From: Felixounavirus LF82P2 | Sequence record: OZ035741.1 | Length of the DNA stretch: 64,000 nt | Reading direction: 5' to 3' (one strand) | Translations under genes and position numbers: made by a program | Part shown: positions 19,306 through 62,545 of the stretch, in pieces | Numbering within the stretch: the stretch's first letter is position 1 | Layout: each line of letters begins with the position of its first letter | Notes under the pieces: model-generated | The model's database searches: none | The model's input: the letters and a program-made list of their open reading frames with translations, nothing else | Told to the model about the DNA's origin: nothing

Positions 19306-20493
19306 ATGGCAGTAGGTGAAATTCAAATTAGTGCCTTGCCTCAAGCAGCCTTACCAATTGACCTTAGTGATATCTTCCATCTTAAGCAGGGTATTGAGGA
19401 TAAGAGGTGTACTCTTGAGCAATTACTTGCTCCACACGCAAGCCTAAGAAATAACCCTCATGGTGTTACTAAGACACAAATTGGTTTAGATAATGTTATT
19501 AATGCTCTTCAATTAGTTGCTGCAAATAACTTATCAGATATTGTTAATGTAGCTGAGGCAAGAGCAAATCTACAGATTATGTCTTCAGAAGAGGTTAATA
19601 ACCTTGTCCAGCAACATATCAAGGACAAGAGTAACCCACACAATACAACTAAGGCACAGGTTGGTTTAAGTAATGTTCAGAACTGGACAACATCTAACCT
19701 GTATAACGAGGATGCAGATAAGTATGCTACAGCAAGAGCAGTAAATAACTTGTACAAGGCTGTTCAGGCTTCTTATCCAGTAGGTACTATCCATCTTTCT
19801 ATGAACTCTGCAAACCCTTCTACATACTTAATTTGTGGAGGTACTTGGGAGTTAGTTTCAAAAGGTAGGGCATTGGTTGGTTATGACTCTGATACAAGGC
19901 CAGCAGGTTCTGTATTTGGTGCTTCAACTGTCACTTTGTCAGTTAATAACATGCCTCAACACTCACATTCTGTATCTCTTAGTGGTGGTGGTCACACTCA
20001 TAATGCAACTGTTTCAATTTCAGCTTTTGACTATGGGACTAAGACTACCAACTCTTTTGACTATGGAACAAAGACCACTAACACAACTGGTAACCACAAT
20101 CACGTTGGTAGTGGGTCAACAAGTGCTGCTGGTGCTCACAACCACAGATTGACTTATGAAGCAGGTGGTGGTCTGTCGGAAAGACCTGCAATGGTTTGGT
20201 CTACAAGGAATGACCAATCGTGGTACTCAGCAGATGCTGTCTGCGAAGTCGCTGGTTCGCACACCCACTCTTTTAGCGTTACCACTAACACAACTGGTAA
20301 CCACAATCACACAGTGGGTATTGGTGCTCATAGCCATACAGTTGGTATTGGTTCACATACACACAACGGTACTGTGACAGTTTCTTCTTCTGAGCATACA
20401 CATAGCGGAAACACTAACAGTGTTGGTGGTGGACAAGCTTTCAACATTGAGCAGCCATCATTCGTACTGTATGTATGGCAGAGAACAGCTTAA
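19306..20493 (+). CDS. tail fibre protein with HxH-rich tip
   Basis: N-terminal phage fibre repeats (NPHGVTKTQIGLDNV, NPHNTTKAQVGLSNV); C-terminus rich in HxH motifs (GNHNH, SHTHS, GAHSHTVGIGSHTHNG) like metal-binding fibre tips; tandem 30-bp duplication at 20025-20084. Confidence 0.7.
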   Translation: MAVGEIQISALPQAALPIDLSDIFHLKQGIEDKRCTLEQLLAPHASLRNNPHGVTKTQIGLDNVINALQLVAANNLSDIVNVAEARANLQIMSSEEVNNLVQQHIKDKSNPHNTTKAQVGLSNVQNWTTSNLYNEDADKYATARAVNNLYKAVQASYPVGTIHLSMNSANPSTYLICGGTWELVSKGRALVGYDSDTRPAGSVFGASTVTLSVNNMPQHSHSVSLSGGGHTHNATVSISAFDYGTKTTNSFDYGTKTTNTTGNHNHVGSGSTSAAGAHNHRLTYEAGGGLSERPAMVWSTRNDQSWYSADAVCEVAGSHTHSFSVTTNTTGNHNHTVGIGAHSHTVGIGSHTHNGTVTVSSSEHTHSGNTNSVGGGQAFNIEQPSFVLYVWQRTA

Positions 20494-20502
20494 TTTCTTT
20501 AC

Positions 20503-20523
20503 AGGGGCTTTATAGCCCCTTTT
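20503..20523 (+). terminator. terminator-like hairpin after first fibre gene
   Basis: AGGGGCT-TTAT-AGCCCCT followed by TTT. Confidence 0.45.
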
Positions 20524-20539
20524 AAGAGGAAAATTTATA

Positions 20540-22915
20540 ATGGCAGATTACAAATTGAGTGAATTAAACTCAATCGATACAATCCGTTCAGATGACCTTC
20601 TTCATGTCAGAGTTAAAAAGAGACCTGAAATGCTGGGTGATGAAGACCGTCGAATGACCTATCAAGATTTCTTAGCATCTTTTAAGCTTGAGAGATTTGT
20701 TCAGATTGCTGGTAGCACTATGACAGGTGACTTAGGGATTGTTAAGTTACTTTATGGTGGTAAGGTAGTATTTAACCCGACAGGCTCTTCTGAGATTACT
20801 ATTGGGGATGTTTTAAAGACTTTTAAAATTAACGCAAATGGTCTTAAACTAACTATTGCAGATGCTTCAAGGTCGGCAACTGTTTATCATACTCTGAATA
20901 AGCCAAGCCCTAATGAGCTTGGGATGAGAACTAATGAAGAGAATGATGCAAGATACTCAAGATTAGCTGCAAATAACATCTTTACCTTCCAACAGGTTAT
21001 TCAAGCAAATGGCGAAGCTATTAGACTAAAAAACTCTTCTGAGAACTCCCCGTTATATATTAGAGGACAGGATAGCACTGGTGCTAATAGGTGGTATGTA
21101 GGTAATGGTTCAGGGAATGATGATGTTATTATCCACAACTACAAGACAGGTTGTGAAGTTAATCTGTCTAGTGTTGCTGCTATTAGCAAAACACTAAGAA
21201 TCACTGGTCAAGTTCAACCATCTGACTTCTCTAACTTAGATGCTAGATATTTTACTCAGACAGTAGCTAATCAGAGATTTGCACAGTTAAATGCTAGTAA
21301 TGTTCTTTATGGTGCTAATACATTTAAAAAAGATGTTGTATTTAACTCAGATATCCCTGTCATTCTTAAGAGTCTAACAGCTAACAAACCATTATATATT
21401 CTAGGTAGAGATGACCAAAACTCCAACTTGTGGTTTGTTGGTAAAGGTGGTTCGGGAACAGAGATTAAATTCTATAACTATGTGAGTGATACTGTTTTAG
21501 AGTTGTCTGAGACGGCAAGATTTAATAAAACTTTGAGGATTACTGGTCAAGTTCAACCTTCAGATTGGACTAACATTGACTCTAGGTACATCCCAGCAGC
21601 TACTTTGAGTAATCTTGCCAAGCTGAGTGATGCAAACACTTTCAGGTCTGCACAGGTTATCAATCTGAATGGCTCATTGTTACAGCTAAAGAACACTACA
21701 CAAGACAGAGAGCTTTACTTTGCTGGTCATAATGCTGATGGTGTTAGAAGGTGGTACATCGGTAATGGGGAACCATCCAACCCAACAAGATTTACTATCC
21801 GCAACGACAGAACTGCAACTACGCTTTATATGCAAGACGATTTCTTGTTGGATAAAACTGTCAGAATTACTGGTCAAGTTCAACCTTCAGATTTCTCTAA
21901 CTTAGATGCTAGATATTTCTTAAAAACAAAACTGTTAAACCAATCTTTAATGACAAGGACAGCTAATAGACTGGATGACCCATCATCATTCAACAAAGAT
22001 TGTTCAGGGTTTGTAAGAAACAACGCTATTGAGCAGGGTCTGAAAGATTTAGCCATCCATGTAGCACATTCTGCTGGTATTGCTCATGCCAGAGGTATTG
22101 CTTTTACATATGGGTCTAAAGGTCTTGATGTCTTCACATACGCTTATGGGTCAGATGGAGCATATGTTGGAGAGGCACAGTTGTATTCAACGGCATTTAA
22201 ACCAGCCCCTTCAGATATTGGTGCATACACTAAAGCTGAAACTGACCAGAAGATTGCACAGGCAGTAAGTGACTCTACAGACCTTAACAAAATCTATCCA
22301 GTAGGTATTGTAACATGGTTTAACAGTAATGTTGACCCTAATACGGCACTTCCTGGTCTAACTTGGACGTACCTGAACAATGGTGTTGGTAGAACTATCA
22401 GAATTGCAGCAGCAAATGGTTCAGATGTTGCTACAACTGGCGGTTCAGATTCTGTAACGTTAGCTGTTGGTAACTTACCATCACACACCCACAGCTTCTC
22501 TGCTACCACTTCATCTTTTGATTATGGTACGAAGAGCACTAATAGCACTGGTGGTCATACTCACTCTGTAAGTGGTACAACAAGTGCTGCTGGTAACCAC
22601 GCTCACCACTTAGGTCTGCTATTGGTTAATGGTGGTGATGCTCAGTACGGTTATACAACTGTTAGCAATAACAAGACGAGAACTCTTGACTGGCTTGACA
22701 GAACTGATAACAAGTTCCCTAACACTAACACAACTGGTAACCATACACACACATGGTCTGGTACTACAAGTAACACTGGTGCTCACACCCACTCTGTAGG
22801 TATTGGTGCTCACACCCATACAGTTAGTGGTAACACTGGTGGTACAGGTTCTGGTTCAGCATTTAGTGTCACTAACCAGTTCTACAAGTTAATGGCTTGG
22901 GTGAGAACTGCTTAA
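20540..22915 (+). CDS. tail fibre protein (long) with HxH-rich tip
   Basis: 791 aa; three internal repeats each ending [10 protein letters not shown](F/W)(S/T)N(L/I)D(A/S)RY; C-terminal HxH block ([43 protein letters not shown]) homologous to the 19306 fibre. Confidence 0.75.
20960..21920 (+). repeat. three tandem ~330-bp intragenic repeats in tail fibre gene
   Basis: near-identical DNA segments ACTGGTCAAGTTCAACC(A/T)TC(T/A)GA at about 21203, 21541 and 21869 encode the repeated [10 protein letters not shown] motif. Confidence 0.6.
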
Positions 22916-23566: not shown

Positions 23567-23596
23567 AAGGCTCCTTTTTACGGGAGCCTTTTTTGT
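23567..23596. terminator. intrinsic terminator between convergent modules
   Basis: stem AAGGCTCC / GGAGCCTT with 8-nt loop, then TTTTGTTTT; lies between the + strand structural operon and the - strand thyA operon. Confidence 0.6.
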
Positions 23597-26697: not shown

Positions 26698-27081
26698 TCA
26701 AATACCTGTGCAGCTTCTGTTTTCTAAGAAATACTCAACACCATACATAGCTTTTTGCATCAAATCTTCTTTAAACTGGATACGGTGGTTGAGCATAGTT
26801 TGTACATCAATATCGTCATGGTGTTTATCTTTAATATTTGCAGATTGCAGGAAATACTCTGCAAGAACACGATATTGATAGTCAGTTACCTTATCAGTCA
26901 TCTCTGTCAAAGACTCTTCAGAGATTGGTTTAAGTAGCTCACCTTTAGATAGAGCAACACCTTTAACAATCTGGCAAGTGTCTTCTGGGACACCTGATAA
27001 GTCCACATTGGGAAGTTCTGTTGCATTGACTGGTAAATTCATTGCCATAACCATTGCAGCAGCTAATAAAATCTTTTTCAT
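26698..27081 (-). CDS. secreted/periplasmic protein with Sec signal peptide
   Basis: N-terminus MKKILLAAAMVMAMNLPVNA then TE; RBS GAGG 6 nt upstream of ATG at 27081. Confidence 0.5.
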   Translation of the reverse strand: MKKILLAAAMVMAMNLPVNATELPNVDLSGVPEDTCQIVKGVALSKGELLKPISEESLTEMTDKVTDYQYRVLAEYFLQSANIKDKHHDDIDVQTMLNHRIQFKEDLMQKAMYGVEYFLENRSCTGI

Positions 27082-27485: not shown

Positions 27486-27674
27486 TCAACAACTTTCTAA
27501 TAAAGTTTTATGAAGATTTTGCTTAACGACCCGCCTCACATGCCTGTGTTCTTTCTTAATAAAGAGTGACCTCTTCTTGTCAGAGCGCCTATTCTTGTAA
27601 GTATTACTAGGATACTTATCATGAACCGGACAACAGCTACCCGGATTTGTAAACTTGATAATCTCTCTTTTCAC
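27486..27674 (-). CDS. small basic protein
   Basis: 62 aa, Arg/Lys-rich, immediately downstream of ligase. Confidence 0.35.
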   Translation of the reverse strand: MKREIIKFTNPGSCCPVHDKYPSNTYKNRRSDKKRSLFIKKEHRHVRRVVKQNLHKTLLESC

Positions 27675-28774
27675 TATTCATAATCCCTAATAACTAGCCC
27701 AACAGGGAACTGTAAAGAACCCTTACGAGTCATCTTCTGGAACTGAACCGTTAAAGGCTTCCCGATAAACTCTTCAGGATGCTCAGCAAGATACTGTTTC
27801 TTCTCGTGTGTAGTTTTCCATGAAACATCTACAAAGACGTTAGGAAGAGTCTCTACAACGAACTTACCATGACCACGCTTATCGGTCTTTACACCAGTCA
27901 CTTTAAACTCTTCAGTGTGCATCTTCTTGTGCTTAATCAAGAAGTATGAACGGTGACAACACTCATAGAAGGAGTCTTCAGAGATTGAACGGTACATTGC
28001 ACCTTCAAACTTAGCTTCAACCCACTTATCATGAGCTTCATCAAACTCTTCCCAAGAATTTACACGGATAGTCTGTACAGGAACAACTCTACAGGTATCC
28101 CCAAGCTCAACAATAGGTGAGTTATCAATAACTTCACGACGCTCAGGCCAAGATTTTGAATTGTCACAGATATCATACCAGTAGAATTTAAGAAGGTGAC
28201 GGTCTGGATTGTCAGCATTCTTAATCATAGATACAATATCTTCTAAGTCCCAACCATGAGCATAAATCTCTCCGTCAAAGTCTTCAACTTGCGGATGTAA
28301 TTTAAGCAACAAAAGCAAATCTGGGATTAGTTCTGTTGGAACGTTGTAAACAGTATTCTCACGAGAATAAGCTGTGAAACTGACTGCATCAGCATCTCTT
28401 GAAATTCTACAACGGACACCATCAAGTTTTGGTTGAGCATCAGCAGGGAACTTCAGATACTTTGCATGACTAACCTTTGCAGCATCATGAGCAAGCTGTA
28501 CACCTACCTTCTCAGTATTCTGTGCAGACTCTTTTGTGTAAGCATAACCTTTGCGGTCAACTTGCTTTTTATACTTAGCAGCAACTTCAAAGAGGGCTTG
28601 CTGTTCAGCGTTACGCTCATTCTTTTTACCGATGTTTTTAGGCTCTGCTGTATACTCTTCAAACATCATCTTGCCATTTTCTTTACCGTAGGTTGTAATA
28701 ACTTTGTCACCTACAGCAACGCATGACCAGACGTTGAAGGAACCGTCTTTATTTTGTTTGTACAGAATTGTCAT
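27674..28774 (-). CDS. ATP-dependent DNA ligase
   Basis: adenylation motif I KLDGVR (PKLDGVRCRI); 366 aa, typical of compact phage ligases. Confidence 0.75.
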   Translation of the reverse strand: MTILYKQNKDGSFNVWSCVAVGDKVITTYGKENGKMMFEEYTAEPKNIGKKNERNAEQQALFEVAAKYKKQVDRKGYAYTKESAQNTEKVGVQLAHDAAKVSHAKYLKFPADAQPKLDGVRCRISRDADAVSFTAYSRENTVYNVPTELIPDLLLLLKLHPQVEDFDGEIYAHGWDLEDIVSMIKNADNPDRHLLKFYWYDICDNSKSWPERREVIDNSPIVELGDTCRVVPVQTIRVNSWEEFDEAHDKWVEAKFEGAMYRSISEDSFYECCHRSYFLIKHKKMHTEEFKVTGVKTDKRGHGKFVVETLPNVFVDVSWKTTHEKKQYLAEHPEEFIGKPLTVQFQKMTRKGSLQFPVGLVIRDYE

Positions 28775-29076
28775 TTTCTCTTACCACCAATCTCTACGTC
28801 GATAACTTGAACATCGCCAGCAACATCAAACTTATGTATGATGCTTTCCACAGTATAAGTCCAACCATCAATGCGAACCATCTCACCTTCTCGTGGAACT
28901 ATTGGATTACGTTGAGCTACAGTTGTAGTGGAGTGAACAACATCATAACGATAGATATAGTTTACTAGGACTTCCATCGTGAAAACCTCACTCAATAACC
29001 GTAGTATGTGATTGTCCATTTTTGCCATAGCTGTAAGATGTTGTTGTTTGAGAGTTTGGACATCTGACAACAACAA
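28771..29076 (-). CDS. hypothetical protein
   Basis: 101 aa ORF; true start uncertain. Confidence 0.3.
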   Translation of the reverse strand: MLLSDVQTLKQQHLTAMAKMDNHILRLLSEVFTMEVLVNYIYRYDVVHSTTTVAQRNPIVPREGEMVRIDGWTYTVESIIHKFDVAGDVQVIDVEIGGKRK

Positions 29077-29224
29077 TATCTCTGCTTATAGCATCACCAT
29101 GTAACTTGTATACTCTGCAATCTTGCATCTCTGGTGGGAGGCTATAAGAAGCATTTTTATCTTCATAAGAAGGGTTGCAGCCAGATAGAAAAATAACACC
29201 AAGCGCAATTACCACTTTCCACAT
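28988..29224 (-). CDS. small lipoprotein (outer-membrane type)
   Basis: internal ATG at 29224 with GGAG 8 nt upstream; signal MWKVVIALGVIFLSG followed by Cys (lipobox LSGC); residue +2 is Asn; mature part about 62 aa with 3 further Cys. Confidence 0.5.
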   Translation of the reverse strand: MWKVVIALGVIFLSGCNPSYEDKNASYSLPPEMQDCRVYKLHGDAISRDIVVVRCPNSQTTTSYSYGKNGQSHTTVIE

Positions 29225-29237
29225 AACACTACTCCTA

Positions 29238-29480
29238 TTACTGTTCACGATGTTCTACTTCTCTGTACGTTCGTCGATAGTATATAATAAGCTGTGCTAA
29301 CTCGTTGCTTTTAACATCTGAACGTAGCAGTTGCCAATCAAAACCTTTACCGACTCTTCCATATAAACTAAACAGTTTTACTTTGCGTTTCATTTTGGTA
29401 TACCAATACTCAGAAGTCAATATTAATACGTTCGCCCTTAAGGACTCCAGTACGGTCTCTTGCAATCTTGCCGTCAACAA
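29238..29480 (-). CDS. hypothetical small protein
   Basis: 80 aa ORF in tightly packed early block. Confidence 0.3.
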   Translation of the reverse strand: MLTARLQETVLESLRANVLILTSEYWYTKMKRKVKLFSLYGRVGKGFDWQLLRSDVKSNELAQLIIYYRRTYREVEHREQ

Positions 29481-29637
29481 TAAGGATATGTGCAGCCCTT
29501 AAAGAGTCACTATTAAAAGCTTTTACGAACTTACTAGGCATCACTACAATGGGCATCTCCTGAATCAACTCTGGAGTATAGCAATTGTCGTGAAGTTGCT
29601 GAATAACGTCTGCAAGTGTCATTTTTGATGTCTCCAA
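29410..29637 (-). CDS. hypothetical small protein
   Basis: 75 aa ORF, overlaps neighbour in a different frame. Confidence 0.3.
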   Translation of the reverse strand: METSKMTLADVIQQLHDNCYTPELIQEMPIVVMPSKFVKAFNSDSLRAAHILIVDGKIARDRTGVLKGERINIDF

Positions 29638-29828
29638 TACTCAATGTCAATAAGTTCTTGTGCAATGCTTTTAAGGTTACCTTTCAAGAAAACCTTCTCA
29701 GAACCTGAAAGAGATGAATTGTCAATTAACCTGTTCATTCTCTCAAACAACTTCTGCTTACGATTTTTGATAGTCTCCTTTGAAGCACCTTTCATCATTG
29801 CTGCATGGGTTCTTCCACGATGGCTCAT
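29619..29828 (-). CDS. hypothetical small basic protein
   Basis: 69 aa ORF, Lys/Arg-rich. Confidence 0.3.
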   Translation of the reverse strand: MSHRGRTHAAMMKGASKETIKNRKQKLFERMNRLIDNSSLSGSEKVFLKGNLKSIAQELIDIEYWRHQK

Positions 29829-29879: not shown

Positions 29880-30443
29880 TCAACTTAGTTTTGCAAACTC
29901 TCCGTGGAGTTTAATAGCAGCTTCACAGTAAGCTTTATGGGCTTCTTCTGGTGTGTCAAACATACCAAGATGATAGTTTTTACCTTGTAAACGTATCATT
30001 GCTCGAAACCTTTTACTTATCTTCTGTACACCTTTTGGCAACCCAGATGGGGACTTTCTTGACCGATTGCAAGAGTTTTGTGAAGCTGTACAAACCCTTA
30101 AATTCAAGTACCTATTGTCCCAACCGTCCCCATTCTTATGGTCAACCTGTAAGTTTTTATCAGGCAGGTATCCATCCACATATAGTATTGCTAGACGGTT
30201 AGCTTGGTAGCCTTTACCATCAAGCAATAACTGAACAGACTTGTGACCATCTGTGTTTATCCTATAATTTCCTGCCTTTTTACCTCCAAAACGAGAGTTG
30301 AAGTTCTTATTGCCTCGTGATACCGGCTCTCTAAACTTCCAAGTAAAGACCCCTGTTTCGGGGTCGTAGTCCAATAGCTCCTTAAGACGAATTTCTGTAA
30401 TCATTTCAACACCATCAATGTACTTCCAACCAGCTCTTACCAA
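29880..30443 (-). CDS. HNH homing endonuclease with AP2-like DNA-binding domain
   Basis: HNH motif VDHKNGDGWDNRYLNLRVCTASQN; N-terminal YDPETGVFTW shared with paralogue at 39995-40519; overlaps 3' end of DNA polymerase gene. Confidence 0.7.
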   Translation of the reverse strand: MVRAGWKYIDGVEMITEIRLKELLDYDPETGVFTWKFREPVSRGNKNFNSRFGGKKAGNYRINTDGHKSVQLLLDGKGYQANRLAILYVDGYLPDKNLQVDHKNGDGWDNRYLNLRVCTASQNSCNRSRKSPSGLPKGVQKISKRFRAMIRLQGKNYHLGMFDTPEEAHKAYCEAAIKLHGEFAKLS

Positions 30444-33114
30444 CCTTACCTGTGCCAGTTACAAGCGTCTCACTCTTCAAACCTAAATTCTTAGATGCCT
30501 GACCATACATCCAGTCAGTTATGGCTTTCACTTCTTGAGTCATACTTTCTGGACATTCCCAACTGTTTTCATCGTGGTATGCCAGCAAAAGCCTAGCACC
30601 AATTGCTGGTTTTCGTCCATTTAATTTTGTCAACCCTTCTTCACATGCTCTTCTACAAGCAAGGTTAATTGCCTCATTTTGAATCTGAGCCTCCGAACCC
30701 ATGAGCAAATAATTCAATAACTTATGTGGAGATTTACACCACAACCAAGCTCCAGCAACCTTTACGAAGCCACCTTTAGAGATTGCAGCAGTCTTACCAA
30801 ACACCTCTTCAAGTGCCTTTTTAGTTGCTTTGTAGTCAGCTTCCAAGTCATCTAGCAGCTTCTTAATTTTAGGCAAACGAATAAAGTAAGTCTGTTTAGT
30901 CAGTGCACCTTCCTGAGTAGTTGCAGCTTTAATCGTCTTAGCAAACTTCTCATCACCTGCACCGAACAGCAGTGCATAGATACCATTCTTAGCTTTCTTA
31001 CGGCCTTTGCTAATCTCATGGAGGAGGTTCTCATCCTGAGTAGCTCGACAAGTCAAGATGTCCTGCTCATCATTCAAGCTAAAGTAAATACTGTTCAGTG
31101 TATGTGCATCAGTCCCTGAATAGACAACGTACAGGTCATTTTCAGAGTCATAGCGAAGGTACTTATCAATCTCTGGGTTGAGGTACTCATCAAAATGTTT
31201 GCAGTAATAGCGTCCATCTTCTTGACGAATGAACTCAATTTCTTCTTTACCTTGCGTTACCGCTTTGGTGAAGTCCTTATCACCCATAAAGTTACAAAGC
31301 AGAACTAGCTGGGCTGAGTTCATGTCTACAGAGACAACGTTAGTACCTTCCTCACAAATCCACACTGCCCTCATTGGTTCCCCATAGACAGCAGCACCAG
31401 ACGGTACGTTTACAATACCATATTGTGTCATACGTCCAGTTGAAGTACCGAACACCATTGCACCAGCACTAAGGCGACCATCAGGACGAATCTGGTTCAA
31501 CCAACCTTTTTCATCATCCTTTGAGTTCTCAATAGTTCTGCGTCGGTGCATCAAAGTATAGTACTTAGCAATCTTCTGTCCAAGTTCACCTTCAATCGTA
31601 TCATAAGATGATTCAGTAAGTTTTGGTGAAGTACGGATTAAGCAAGGCTCAAGCAAATCTGTGTATTTCTTCACAGACCAGTTATGCTCGATGTACTGGA
31701 CGCCTTCATGCTCGACATAACTCAATCCACACCGTTCTACCATCTCCTGCCACTTAGGATGTTTTGTAATCATCTTTTTATTGTCTTTGAAACGACAAAC
31801 TTTGACAGGGCGACCGTCTGAGTCTTTCTTGTAGTTCCAGTCATCTGGAATCCAACCAACTGATTTCAAGTAGTCTTTTACAACTGCTACCTGAGTCATA
31901 CGAGAAACTTCAAACTCAATTGGTGTATATGGTGCATCAATCAATCCTGTGTAGCGACTTGACTCAAGTTCAAAGTGGTTAACAACGTGGCTGTTATAGT
32001 ACTTCACAGTTTTGACTGTTTTTACTGGCTTCCAGTCTTTGCATTTCTTACCAATCTTTGCGTTCAACTCATTGCAAATTGCACGAGCATCCTTCATTGC
32101 TACAAAGCCTTCCTTGTACTCTTCACCAGTTACAGAGTTGGTTGGTGTATAGCAATTTCTCTTTTCAATGTTAAAAATCTTTGTAGTTGGCTTACCAAAT
32201 GGTTTGATTTCGTATGTCTGCATCTCACCGTTACGCACCTGTTGACGGTACTTCGTCTTAGGATACTTGGTGATTCTCTTCAACCCATCTGCATGACCAA
32301 ATGTTTCAACATACTCATTCCAAGCCTTTGCAAACTCTTCACCAGTTACTTTACCTTTGGTCTTAATAGTTGGAGGTAGATGTGGTTCAACCTCTGAAGC
32401 AAGCTCATTAGTCAACTTGTCAAGTTCCTTTACATGGAACTCCATAAGCTCTTTATCAGCTTTCCAACCATTGATAGCTTGCTGGCTCATCCAGAAAGAT
32501 GTTTCTTTAGCTCGCATGTAGGTTTCATAAGTATCTATGCCACACTTCTTAAGCTTGAGATACTCATTATCAAGTGCCCGTTTAGTTTTGGCGTTAATAC
32601 GGATATCTTCTACAACACGAGTGAAGATTTCTGCATTCCACACACCCCAATGTTCAATCTCTGGTTTACGAACACCAACACGAGCACCCCATGCAGCCAA
32701 ACCATGAGCACCTTTATAACCCTTTGGAGTTGGTCTATCCATCCACTGAACACGAGACTGGATAAGAGAATCCTGAAAGAAATTACTCCACGGTTTACAC
32801 TTTGGGTTATCAAAGTTCCATAAATCAGGTGCAATGTGATTGAAAACCCACCAGTCATAACCGAGACCGTTATGGATGCAAAGACGTTTTGCCTTTAACG
32901 CAAACTCAATACCTTCACGTAAGCCACCCTTGATGTACTTGGTGTACTTGTGACCGAGAATAGGTTCATCTGTAAAGACCCATACAGGTGGCTCTTCATC
33001 GTCAGATTTATAGTCTGCGAAAGCCATTACGTGCACTTTAGTGAACTCAAGGAGTAAACCATCAGTTTCTGTATCACCAACTAAATGTAAGTTTTTAAAA
33101 TCTACGTTTTCCAT
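30415..33114 (-). CDS. DNA polymerase, family A, with 3'-5' exonuclease domain
   Basis: exo motif DTETDGL; Pol A motif A-like VVSVDMNSAQLVLL, motif B-like KNGIYALLFGAG, motif C YHDE; best start ATG at 33114 (MENVDF...) with RBS AGGGAG, track start 33144 is further upstream. Confidence 0.85.
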   Translation of the reverse strand: MENVDFKNLHLVGDTETDGLLLEFTKVHVMAFADYKSDDEEPPVWVFTDEPILGHKYTKYIKGGLREGIEFALKAKRLCIHNGLGYDWWVFNHIAPDLWNFDNPKCKPWSNFFQDSLIQSRVQWMDRPTPKGYKGAHGLAAWGARVGVRKPEIEHWGVWNAEIFTRVVEDIRINAKTKRALDNEYLKLKKCGIDTYETYMRAKETSFWMSQQAINGWKADKELMEFHVKELDKLTNELASEVEPHLPPTIKTKGKVTGEEFAKAWNEYVETFGHADGLKRITKYPKTKYRQQVRNGEMQTYEIKPFGKPTTKIFNIEKRNCYTPTNSVTGEEYKEGFVAMKDARAICNELNAKIGKKCKDWKPVKTVKTVKYYNSHVVNHFELESSRYTGLIDAPYTPIEFEVSRMTQVAVVKDYLKSVGWIPDDWNYKKDSDGRPVKVCRFKDNKKMITKHPKWQEMVERCGLSYVEHEGVQYIEHNWSVKKYTDLLEPCLIRTSPKLTESSYDTIEGELGQKIAKYYTLMHRRRTIENSKDDEKGWLNQIRPDGRLSAGAMVFGTSTGRMTQYGIVNVPSGAAVYGEPMRAVWICEEGTNVVSVDMNSAQLVLLCNFMGDKDFTKAVTQGKEEIEFIRQEDGRYYCKHFDEYLNPEIDKYLRYDSENDLYVVYSGTDAHTLNSIYFSLNDEQDILTCRATQDENLLHEISKGRKKAKNGIYALLFGAGDEKFAKTIKAATTQEGALTKQTYFIRLPKIKKLLDDLEADYKATKKALEEVFGKTAAISKGGFVKVAGAWLWCKSPHKLLNYLLMGSEAQIQNEAINLACRRACEEGLTKLNGRKPAIGARLLLAYHDENSWECPESMTQEVKAITDWMYGQASKNLGLKSETLVTGTGKVGKSWLEVH

Positions 33115-33144
33115 TTTTACTCCCTCTAAAATCATTAACCTCAT

Positions 33145-35622: not shown

Positions 35623-37600
35623 AGGTCGTAAATTGAAAGAGGCTGGTCAGTTTGTTGGTCATTGCGCATGTCCACGTTGTGGTTCATCAGATGCTGGTTC
35701 AATCTATCACCATGACGATGATTCTTATTCAATGACTTGCTTTAGTTGTAACAAAGGTTTCCCAGAGTGGGATTTTGATAAAGGACAAATCGTGAGCACT
35801 TATTCTACTGGTTCAGACAATAAAAACCGTACTTTCCGTGGAATGGATTTAGACGATGTGAGAGAAAACCTTGAAGCAATGGACTTAAAGGACAGGAAGA
35901 TTCCTGCAAAAGTTCTTGAGCGTTTGGGTATCAAGGTTGACATTGACAGTGACGGTGAAATTGATGCGCATTTCTATCCAACTTACAAACGTAATGAAGA
36001 TGGTAAGCTAGAGCACGTCGGTTACCGTGTACGTCATCGTTATCCAGAAGACCATCCAAAAGAACACCTACGAGGTAAGCTAAAAGACTTCTCAGGTGGT
36101 GTTGGAGACATTAAAGGTGAACTGGCAATGTTCGGTTCATGGATTGCTCCAGAAGGTGGTAACCGTCTATTCATCTGGGAAGGTGAGATGGAATGTGCGA
36201 CAGCAATCTATATGACTTCTCTTGCGATTAAGGACAAGTCTCGTCGTAAGAATTACTGTCACGTATCTGTTCCATCAGGTGCAAACATCAAGTCTATCAA
36301 AGATAACTATCAGTACATTACATCCTTTGATGAAATTTACTTGTGCTTTGATAACGATGAAGCAGGTGCTAAAGCTACTAAAGAGGCTGCTGGTATCCTA
36401 CCTATTGAGAAGGTTCGTTTATTCCAGTACCCAGAGGGTGTAAAAGACCTTAACGAATGGTGGACAAAGTTCTATAAAGAAAAAGATACAGTTCTGGAAG
36501 GATTTAAGCAGCGTATCTACAATGCACCTCGTTACTGCCCTGCTGGTATCAAGAACTTCGCAGATGGTTTTGAGGCAATGAAGAATCGTGGTCAGATTCC
36601 ATTGATTCCTTTCCCAGAATCATTCGGAGATTTGAACAGACTGACTTATGGTGGTTATGGTTTAGGTGAGATTACAACTCTGGCAGCACCCTCTTCAGTG
36701 GGTAAATCTGCATACACTCGTGAAATGATTTATACTGCTTGGAAAGATACCGATTACAATATTGGTGTAATTCCTGTAGAAGATACCTATGAAGAGTTGA
36801 TGGAGATGCTCTGTGCAATCCACCTGAGCAAGCAGATTTCTGAGATTCCTTATGACGAACGTGATTGGGATGAATTGAAGAAGGCACACGCAGAACTGTC
36901 TAAAGGTCGTCGTATCCACATCGTTGACCATCAAGGGGCAATTGACCAAGATAACTTGCTGGAGTTTGTTGACTATCTTGTTAACAGCTTAGACTGTAAG
37001 ATTATTATTCTTGACCCTATTACGTTGGCTCTGTCACGTTCAGATACGGACGAAGAGGAAGTTTTATCTGAGCTATTGCGTCGTTGCAAACGCTACCAGT
37101 ATGCACAGGTGAACGTCTGTCACGTTCGTAAGAGTGCAGGTGGTCAGAAGGCTAACTCCGAAGGTGGAGATATCTCTGAAGAGGATATTAAAGGTTCTGG
37201 TGCGTATTTCCAGATTTCTATGAACAACATTCTGTTAATGCGTAACAAGGTTGACCCAGACCCTGTTAAGAAAAACTTGACAAAAATCAAGTTAACTAAA
37301 TGCCGTCGTCACGGTAAGTCAACAGGTATTGCTGGTCATACTTGGTACAATCCAGATACAGGACGTCTCATTAAAGCCTCTGGTTGTGGAGTTGACATTG
37401 ATGGTGCAGCAGAAAATATTCGCCAACAGTTTGGTATTGGTGAAGCTGAAGACCATTACGATGACTCTTTGCCACATTATGAGGATGAAGTGTTTGACCG
37501 TGAGACTGGTGAAGTCTATACTGAAGAGCAGCGTCAAAGCTCAACGATTCCACCTGTATTAAGTGAGGATGCAGATGACTGCCCGTTCGAAACTGAGTGA
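35609..37600 (+). CDS. DNA primase-helicase (T7 gp4-like bifunctional)
   Basis: N-terminal zinc finger CACPRCGSSD ... CFSCNKG; central TOPRIM-like acidic region; C-terminal DnaB-type Walker A APSSVGKSA. Confidence 0.8.
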   Translation: MLMSKGRKLKEAGQFVGHCACPRCGSSDAGSIYHHDDDSYSMTCFSCNKGFPEWDFDKGQIVSTYSTGSDNKNRTFRGMDLDDVRENLEAMDLKDRKIPAKVLERLGIKVDIDSDGEIDAHFYPTYKRNEDGKLEHVGYRVRHRYPEDHPKEHLRGKLKDFSGGVGDIKGELAMFGSWIAPEGGNRLFIWEGEMECATAIYMTSLAIKDKSRRKNYCHVSVPSGANIKSIKDNYQYITSFDEIYLCFDNDEAGAKATKEAAGILPIEKVRLFQYPEGVKDLNEWWTKFYKEKDTVLEGFKQRIYNAPRYCPAGIKNFADGFEAMKNRGQIPLIPFPESFGDLNRLTYGGYGLGEITTLAAPSSVGKSAYTREMIYTAWKDTDYNIGVIPVEDTYEELMEMLCAIHLSKQISEIPYDERDWDELKKAHAELSKGRRIHIVDHQGAIDQDNLLEFVDYLVNSLDCKIIILDPITLALSRSDTDEEEVLSELLRRCKRYQYAQVNVCHVRKSAGGQKANSEGGDISEEDIKGSGAYFQISMNNILLMRNKVDPDPVKKNLTKIKLTKCRRHGKSTGIAGHTWYNPDTGRLIKASGCGVDIDGAAENIRQQFGIGEAEDHYDDSLPHYEDEVFDRETGEVYTEEQRQSSTIPPVLSEDADDCPFETE

Positions 37601-50521: not shown

Positions 50522-50817
50522 GTAAAACAATTCGAAGAAAAGGTTTAAAGAACGTTCATGGACTCTATGAGTGGAGAAATGAGGTACGTAACAGAGAAAA
50601 TGCTTCAGATGTCTACTTCCATTCTGATATGATGTCCAGAAAAGGTGGCTCTTATGACTTTACAAGTCAGCCTTGTAGAGAGATTAAGCAGGCTACTAAA
50701 CGTCTTACAAGAACACAAATCAGGCAGCTTTCTAAGACATCCTTCTTAGATGAAGACTTTGACATTGATAGCAAGTCTCCAAAGAAAGCCGCTAAGAACA
50801 CTTATATGTATTGGTGA
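50518..50817 (+). CDS. hypothetical protein
   Basis: 99 aa ORF, basic. Confidence 0.35.
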   Translation: MSKTIRRKGLKNVHGLYEWRNEVRNRENASDVYFHSDMMSRKGGSYDFTSQPCREIKQATKRLTRTQIRQLSKTSFLDEDFDIDSKSPKKAAKNTYMYW

Positions 50818-62034: not shown

Positions 62035-62382
62035 ATGACATTTAAAGAGTTCTGTCAAGCTACTTTCATAATTGTTTTCTTAGTTGGTGCAGGTGTCTGG
62101 GGAGGATACTCTTACAGAGACTATCAAGTTGCTGAAACTGAGCTAAATAATGAGAAACTAATAAGTGTTGCTAAAGATGCTTATCAGGAAGGTTTAGCCA
62201 CACTCAGCACCAATTACAAAAATGATTTGAAAGATGTGCTTGCTAAGAATAAGCATACAAAAGAGGTACTAACATATGAAAAAACTAAGCCAGAGTTTTA
62301 TAATGTTTGTGTTACTGATAACTATGTCAGGGTGTTCAACGAACAAAGTGAGCAGTACATTCAAAAACTCCCAAGTAAGTGA
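62035..62382 (+). CDS. i-spanin-like protein (Rz-like; N-terminal TM plus periplasmic coiled coil)
   Basis: 115 aa; N-terminal TM FIIVFLVGAGVWGGY then helical charged domain; a lipoprotein ORF is embedded in its 3' end in another frame. Confidence 0.4.
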   Translation: MTFKEFCQATFIIVFLVGAGVWGGYSYRDYQVAETELNNEKLISVAKDAYQEGLATLSTNYKNDLKDVLAKNKHTKEVLTYEKTKPEFYNVCVTDNYVRVFNEQSEQYIQKLPSK

Positions 62383-62545
62383 GGGTGATAAGTACACCCA
62401 AGAAGAATCACGGTATATCATCAAAGGCAACACAGGCAGCGATGTAGCAGCAGCCCTTGAGTTCTATCGTGACGGCTTTTACCAGTGCACAATCAAAGCT
62501 AACAACCTTATTGACATGATTTTATTAGGGAATAAGCAGCAATGA
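62276..62545 (+). CDS. o-spanin-like lipoprotein (Rz1-like), overlapping i-spanin gene
   Basis: signal plus lipobox MKKLSQSFIMFVLLITMSG-C; starts inside the 62035-62382 ORF in a different frame; atypical for Rz1 (89 aa, not Pro-rich). Confidence 0.35.
   Translation: MKKLSQSFIMFVLLITMSGCSTNKVSSTFKNSQVSEGDKYTQEESRYIIKGNTGSDVAAALEFYRDGFYQCTIKANNLIDMILLGNKQQ

Follow-up and report, generated by a model that had tools for sequence, protein, structure and literature searches.

The minus strand of Felixounavirus LF82P2 encodes, at 28988..29224, a lipoprotein precursor of 78 aa that is an ordinary member of a catalogued family, DUF4884 or phrog_902, and that is found in hundreds of sequenced Felixounaviruses. 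The window referred to throughout is the whole 64,000-nt stretch of DNA that was analysed (OZ035741.1). The gene is real and under strong purifying selection. Its product is a direct member of the family and shows no structural difference from it. It is not a homologue of the receptor-blocking lipoproteins with which it shares size and organisation. The role put forward tentatively below as the likeliest is receptor-independent exclusion of other phages, or protection of the envelope of the infected cell. The literature searched holds no functional study of the DUF4884 family or of a Felixounavirus lipoprotein, and no member with a described phenotype.

The gene and its surroundings

The coding sequence runs from an ATG at 29224-29222 to a TGA at 28990-28988 and is identified by its dN/dS ratio, by its match to phrog_902 and by the record of phage LinBro, which annotates the identical 237-nt CDS with the same ATG start. 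An AGGAG Shine–Dalgarno motif, read from the sequence, lies 7 nt 5' of the ATG (29232..29236, minus strand) and is directly abutted by the TAA of the upstream ORF (29240-29238). The motif is retained in orthologues for which this ATG is the sole possible start. Orthologues of the wV8-like and Moogle-like types have an in-frame stop just 5' of the ATG, with AGGAG or a similar ribosome-binding site (RBS), so that the ATG is the only start available in those genomes. The preliminary description had chosen this internal ATG, with a GGAG-type RBS, as the beginning of a 78-aa precursor, and the relatives support the choice. An alternative in-frame GTG (29246..29248, minus strand) would yield a precursor of 86 aa; it overlaps the upstream ORF and has a weak GAGAAG RBS here. 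In Mushroom-like orthologues TGT replaces the ATG and the upstream GTG is obligatory, giving a precursor that begins MNNKVKSCVKAMVAL and continues to an LxGC lipobox. Each of the two starts produces a valid lipoprotein signal peptide. Initiation at the GTG had been proposed as grounds for abandoning the lipoprotein assignment, on the argument that the signal peptide would then be buried. That argument is invalid, because the GTG merely lengthens the n-region of the signal peptide, and the longer version is kept as a lipoprotein in the Mushroom-like relatives. Since both versions are proper signal peptides, the signal for export and lipidation has been kept by selection through the change of start codon.

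Pairwise comparison of 22 Felixounavirus orthologues over the mature region gives a median dN/dS of 0.055. The alternative of a chance ORF or of a remnant without function, for which the missing annotation in the phage XTG1 record and the frameshifted copies in two assemblies might speak, is already refuted by this value, by conservation of the gene in hundreds of phage genomes and more than 1,200 clusters, and by the maintenance of RBS and signal peptide across start-codon changes. In the XTG1 record (L001, KT184316.1) the lipoprotein ORF is present at 36270-36443, and in several other GenBank records the site is annotated with two hypothetical proteins that overlap. Two Logan assemblies (P0013 and P0014) contain 64-aa versions that are frameshifted after about residue 45. 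These are either real pseudogenes or assembly errors; because such versions exist, the phage may be able to do without the gene. A six-frame scan of the 64 kb for a lipobox behind a hydrophobic core, taken from every start, returned the lipoprotein ORF and one other, a 35-aa ORF with a TTG start at 50667..50774 that is regarded as spurious. The scan was strict and missed the o-spanin candidate at 62276 discussed below because the lipobox of that protein begins with Met.

The 2.9 kb around the gene are 99.8% identical to Felixounavirus LF82P1 and share 88–96% identity with many Felix O1-like myophages that infect E. coli, Salmonella, Shigella and Citrobacter. The window opens at the terminase gene, and the structural module occupies the plus strand to about 23.5 kb. 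The DNA-metabolism block on the minus strand comprises the DNA polymerase (30415-33144), an HNH/AP2 endonuclease, small ORFs, the DNA ligase (27674-28774) and thymidylate synthase. The lipoprotein gene had been placed in an early region, among tiny ORFs and next to the ligase gene. The placement among tiny ORFs stands: they lie upstream (29238-29390/29480, 29410-29622 and 29619-29828), within the DNA-metabolism module. The ligase, however, is not the adjacent gene, as a 68-aa ORF intervenes (28771-28977, minus strand). Packing is tight, and this next gene downstream begins 10 nt past the TGA of the lipoprotein gene. Because it is packed within the DNA-metabolism block, the lipoprotein is probably produced ahead of the products of the late and lysis genes, to judge by gene neighbourhood alone. 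Promoter-like sites are no commoner than chance, and no terminator-like site was found between the polymerase and a hairpin at 23567-23590; this hairpin is the one result of the terminator scan that rises above chance. Among 27 diverse loci, no neighbour gene is conserved outside the genus. In other phages the homologue sits among small unannotated ORFs, and a Vibrio example adjoins replication genes.

Several further features of this part of the genome were recorded. The hairpin at 23567-23590 (AAGGCTCC...GGAGCCTT) resembles a bidirectional terminator, with T-runs on both sides, and separates the converging structural (plus-strand) and DNA-metabolism (minus-strand) blocks. Relatives such as XTG1 and Mushroom have one more ORF, of 219 nt, where the 68-aa ORF directly follows the ligase gene in the present genome; it is missing from the window, which accounts for a difference of about 195 bp in alignment length. 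The DNA polymerase of the window is a single intact ORF of 909 aa, whose 3' end is overlapped by the free-standing HNH/AP2 endonuclease gene (29880-30443, minus strand). Phages Mushroom and LinBro have the polymerase annotated as two pieces, with an endonuclease VII gene between them in LinBro. The minus strand at 26698-27081 encodes a 127-aa protein of phrog_4332 with a signal peptide of the signal-peptidase-I type (MKKILLAAAMVMAMNLPVNA/TE). In Citrobacter-type Felixounaviruses this protein is 31–34% identical, against about 80% for thymidylate synthase and about 90% for the ligase. Because its identity falls so far below theirs, it is a fast-evolving secreted protein of the DNA-metabolism block.

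The lipoprotein and the DUF4884 family

The precursor reads MWKVVIALGVIFLSG/CNPSYEDKNASYSLPPEMQDCRVYKLHGDAISRDIVVVRCPNSQTTTSYSYGKNGQSHTTVIE, where the stroke marks the predicted cleavage site and the mature part begins CNPSYEDKN and ends TTVIE. Residues 1-15 form the predicted signal peptide (29180..29224, minus strand), with an n-region MWK and a hydrophobic core VVIALGVIF, and are conserved in the family. The lipobox L-S-G/C follows (29177..29188, minus strand). Its cysteine, Cys16 (29177-29179), is the predicted acylated residue and becomes residue 1 of the mature protein; Asn occupies position +2 (Asn17) and Pro position +3. In E. coli, lipoproteins with Asp at +2 stay in the inner membrane. 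With Asn at +2, therefore, Lol-dependent transfer to the outer membrane is predicted. The preliminary description had deduced a canonical lipobox with Asn at +2, outer-membrane sorting and a Cys-containing mature domain of about 62 aa. The lipobox is there, and 196 of 203 relatives have one; the mature domain is 63 aa long when the lipidated Cys is counted; and the predicted outer-membrane destination gains support from Asn17.

The mature domain (28991..29179, minus strand) was modelled with AlphaFold2 as a tether of about 20 residues followed by a four-stranded antiparallel beta meander. The model is all-beta and has a mean pLDDT of 70.8, which corresponds to moderate confidence. In mature numbering its strands cover residues 5-7, 22-27, 34-39, 44-51 and 55-62. 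Beyond the lipidated residue, the mature part contains two cysteines. Cys36 (29117..29119, minus strand) lies in a D-C-K/R-V-Y motif. Cys55 (29060-29062) lies in the family signature VVRCPNSQTTTSY, which spans residues 52-64 (29033..29071, minus strand). A C36–C55 disulfide is predicted because both cysteines are invariant in alignments A1–A3 and their positions flank adjacent strands in the model. The protein ends in ...GKNGQSHTTVIE, a polar C-terminus that contains no membrane segment. A resemblance of the C-terminal TTVIDG segment to TonB boxes was dropped as unsupported. Fold searches with the AlphaFold2 model gave no specific or informative match, sequence searches of the PDB returned nothing relevant for either the single protein or the family profile, and scans against Pfam, NCBIfam and PADLOC yielded noise or matches to the signal peptide only.

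The lipoprotein matches PHROG phrog_902, annotated as function unknown, over residues 1-76 (E 1.3e-16). Nearly all homologues carry a precomputed PF16225:DUF4884 label (E<=1e-5); hmmscan against a local Pfam-A did not return PF16225 for any of 27 sequences drawn from two overlapping alignment sets. A 'DUF4884 domain-containing protein' is also listed, by that paper's own label, in the description of a T1-like phage genome (PMC12210894). A profile search of 1.84 billion representative proteins identified 1,273 clusters at E<=1e-3, of which 815 reached E<=1e-10; the best 150 matches are all small proteins of 71–154 aa. With tblastn, a homologue was found in 585 phage records. Apart from Felixounaviruses, they include Vequintavirinae-type phages (Pectobacterium CB7, Escherichia 4MG), jumbo phages of Yersinia, Erwinia, Serratia and Escherichia, T4-like phages of Aeromonas and Acinetobacter, Vibrio phage JSF10 and many 114-kb Vibrio phages. 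The family belongs to large virulent phages of Gammaproteobacteria, and its range covers Felix O1-like, T4-like, jumbo, rV5-like and ICP1-like phages. Some annotations already point to lipidation: CB7_100 of Pectobacterium phage CB7 is a 'putative lipoprotein', and the homologues of Aeromonas phage Aeh1 and Vibrio phage JSF10 are entered as 'Lipoprotein'.

Members share a common architecture. The lipobox, present upstream in about 97% of the 203 motif-bearing homologues, is followed by the tether, by D-C-K-x-Y and then by V-V-R-C-P-N-S-x-T-T-T-S-Y, with two invariant cysteines (A1–A3). Invariance or near-invariance is seen at the lipid Cys, at a Pro of the tether, at the D-C that opens strand 2 and at R-C-P-N-S-x-T. 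The distance from the lipid Cys to the RCPNS motif has a median of 37 residues (5th–95th percentile 35–43). Asp stands at +2 in about 13% of members, and localisation may therefore differ across the family, given the inner-membrane retention that this residue causes in E. coli. In P0027, P0060, P0065, P0072, P0074 and others, the core domain is followed by a C-terminal extension in which I-N-G-E-T-Y-[RK]-K or I-D-G-V-E-Y-x-P-K units are repeated.

Outside phages the motif is rare. The pattern VVRCPNSxT[TS], strict enough for divergent members to escape it, was scanned against the genomes of 185,579 bacterial and archaeal species, one per species, and gave a single confirmed locus, in Hylemonella gracilis, whose gene context is uninformative. 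Blastn against 5,426 complete E. coli genomes, which detects DNA down to roughly 65–70% identity, produced no match. Within the searches run, the DUF4884/phrog_902 family thus appears close to phage-only.

Possible roles in the infected cell

Among the functions considered, receptor-independent exclusion or envelope protection ranks first as a tentative choice, and takeover of the host envelope that involves no exclusion ranks second. Masking of the phage's own receptor and counter-defence share a distinctly lower place, and the prospects of a part in lysis or of a chance ORF are negligible. The pathway envisaged for the leading proposal is as follows. (i) The gene would be co-transcribed with the replication genes. 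(ii) The precursor would be exported by Sec, lipidated at Cys16 and cleaved by signal peptidase II. (iii) Asn at +2 would direct Lol sorting of the product to the inner leaflet of the outer membrane. (iv) The mature protein would then extend into the periplasm, its beta domain (about 45 residues, locked by a disulfide) suspended from a tether of constant length. (v) This domain may bind a conserved component of the envelope rather than the receptor of the phage itself. (vi) The outcome would be protection of the infected cell at the level of the envelope, either by exclusion of secondary phage entry or by stabilization of the envelope.

A conserved envelope target is likely because the family is widespread, nearly absent from the bacterial genomes scanned and untied to a receptor-binding gene. 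We infer the same from the near-invariant RCPNSxTTTSY domain, which is present in many unrelated virulent phages of Gammaproteobacteria independently of tail-fibre type. An objection to exclusion is that it is not obvious how a lipoprotein facing the periplasm could obstruct a phage that recognizes LPS. Receptor-independent exclusion by early envelope proteins is known from phage T4, whose Sp (spackle) and Imm proteins act in this manner and are not lipoproteins. Sp and Imm offer a possible functional analogy, as early exported or membrane proteins of a virulent myophage, and serve here as a lead only.

In a wider and more speculative form of this proposal, the DUF4884 lipoproteins could make up an unrecognized class of envelope effectors that many unrelated virulent phages of Gammaproteobacteria share and that work independently of the receptor-binding protein. 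The disulfide-locked RCPNSxTTTSY strand-turn might dock on one conserved machine, such as Bam, Lpt, Lol, TonB or Tol-Pal, and bring about generic superinfection exclusion or a shutdown of envelope biogenesis. From work on Llp, Cor and Rtp45 it is known that a lipoprotein acting from the periplasm can lock the LPS translocon and transporters of the outer membrane. The DUF4884 family, with its more than 1,200 clusters, is far more widespread than those three. If its target were identified, a new point of vulnerability in the Gram-negative envelope could come to light, and cross-exclusion between therapeutic phages in cocktails could be explained. The breadth and conservation of the family make the lipoprotein a moderately interesting experimental target.

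Takeover of the host envelope is a possible but less favoured explanation. The lipoprotein would inhibit or redirect a conserved machine or enzyme of the periplasm or outer membrane, for example cell-wall hydrolases, outer-membrane biogenesis or vesiculation, and would in this way keep the envelope intact, set the timing of lysis or halt envelope turnover. Conservation of the motif over phages of many hosts and independence of the gene from tail-fibre type fit such a role, as they fit exclusion. Two further points have been counted in its favour: the family is carried mainly by virulent phages, given its rarity in the bacterial genomes scanned, and the fixed length of the tether points to a target that lies at a set distance from the membrane. 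On the other hand, no likeness to known families of periplasmic inhibitors emerged from Pfam, NCBIfam, PADLOC or PDB comparisons, and no conserved partner gene accompanies the lipoprotein gene.

Masking of the phage's own receptor from the periplasm, in the manner of Llp and Cor, would protect the infected cell and spare progeny from adsorption to cell debris. Both Llp and Rtp45 are known to mask the receptor of their phage from the periplasmic side (PMC9586334; PMC12685063). The lipoprotein shares the organization of Llp, Cor and Rtp45, which combine a precursor of about 75–78 aa, a lipobox and a mature part of about 60 aa with two cysteines. The FhuA blockers Llp of T5 and Cor of T1, phi80 and N15 are the closest in plan, with precursors of 77-78 aa, and the likeness extends to carriage by a virulent phage. 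Rtp45, the exclusion lipoprotein of phage Rtp, binds LptDE; it is likewise small and periplasm-facing, with an internal disulfide and target contacts made by beta-strands, and sets a precedent for action on a conserved outer-membrane machine (PMC12685063).

Homology with these proteins was nevertheless rejected by profile comparison. Sequences of T5 Llp, Rtp45 and T1 Cor were taken from their phage genomes. Full-length Llp aligns with the family over the signal peptide and lipobox only. When the mature domains were compared with the family by hhalign, the probabilities were 3.3% for Llp, 0.1% for Rtp45 and 0.3% for Cor, values comparable to the 0.4% given by a second, unrelated lipoprotein, the o-spanin candidate of the window itself. 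The predicted fold likewise shows no match to the solved FhuA-Llp or LptDE-Rtp45 lipoproteins. The spacing of the cysteines differs as well: C36 and C55 here, as against positions near both ends of the mature protein in Llp and Cor.

Gene location and the behaviour of the tail fibres also speak against masking. The llp gene adjoins oad and rtp45 adjoins rtp43/44, both of them receptor-binding loci, and cor follows ST32 and ST31, no more than about 1.1 kb downstream of ST33, a gpJ-like tail gene (on this placement beside receptor-binding loci, see also PMC8594841). The Felixounavirus gene, in contrast, is 6–10 kb from the tail-fibre genes (19306-22915, plus strand) and on the other side of a strand switch. 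Comparison of 21 related contigs shows no co-variation between the mature lipoprotein and the fibres. In four of them (L055-L057 and L062) it is 100% identical, whereas tail fibre 1 is 36–38% and tail fibre 2 is 64–74% identical; in another (L067) the fibres are 97–98% identical and the lipoprotein 89%. Felixounaviruses, moreover, are reported to depend on the LPS core rather than on a protein receptor (PMC8594841), and phages that infect a wide variety of hosts carry the DUF4884 domain. Masking of the phage's own receptor is consequently improbable. The likeness to T5 Llp in size and organization that the preliminary description pointed out stands; it does not extend to homology, fold, gene location or co-variation with the tail fibres.

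Counter-defence is as improbable as receptor masking. The lipoprotein would neutralize a host or prophage defence located in the envelope, such as an exclusion or abortive-infection protein. An accessory early gene of virulent phages that is variably present, with possible frameshifted copies, would suit this purpose. Conservation of the domain across hosts, however, exceeds what would be expected for a strain-specific target, and PADLOC gave no match above noise.

A component of the lysis machinery, either an o-spanin or an accessory to the spanin complex, is by far the least convincing of the functional assignments. To be a small, phage-encoded lipoprotein predicted to reach the outer membrane is the defining property of o-spanins and a likeness to those of the Rz1 type. 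Unlike the genes of Rz1-type o-spanins, the lipoprotein gene is unpaired with an i-spanin gene and lies outside the lysis cassette, in the DNA-metabolism block. The ORFs on either side encode no membrane segments. The u-spanin alternative (T1 gp11-like) was rejected on the polar C-terminus, which has no transmembrane segment. The phage also has its own overlapped spanin pair within the window, at 62035-62545, and an o-spanin identity for the product of 28988..29224 was rejected. The i-spanin of this pair (62035-62382, plus strand) is a protein of 115 aa with an N-terminal membrane segment and corresponds to the Rz-like spanin of the LinBro annotation. The o-spanin candidate (62276-62545, plus strand) is an 89-aa lipoprotein (MKKLSQSFIMFVLLITMSG/C) that starts inside the i-spanin gene in another frame and has no similarity to the DUF4884 family. 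In the LinBro record, the Rz-like gene is the only one of the overlapped pair to be annotated.
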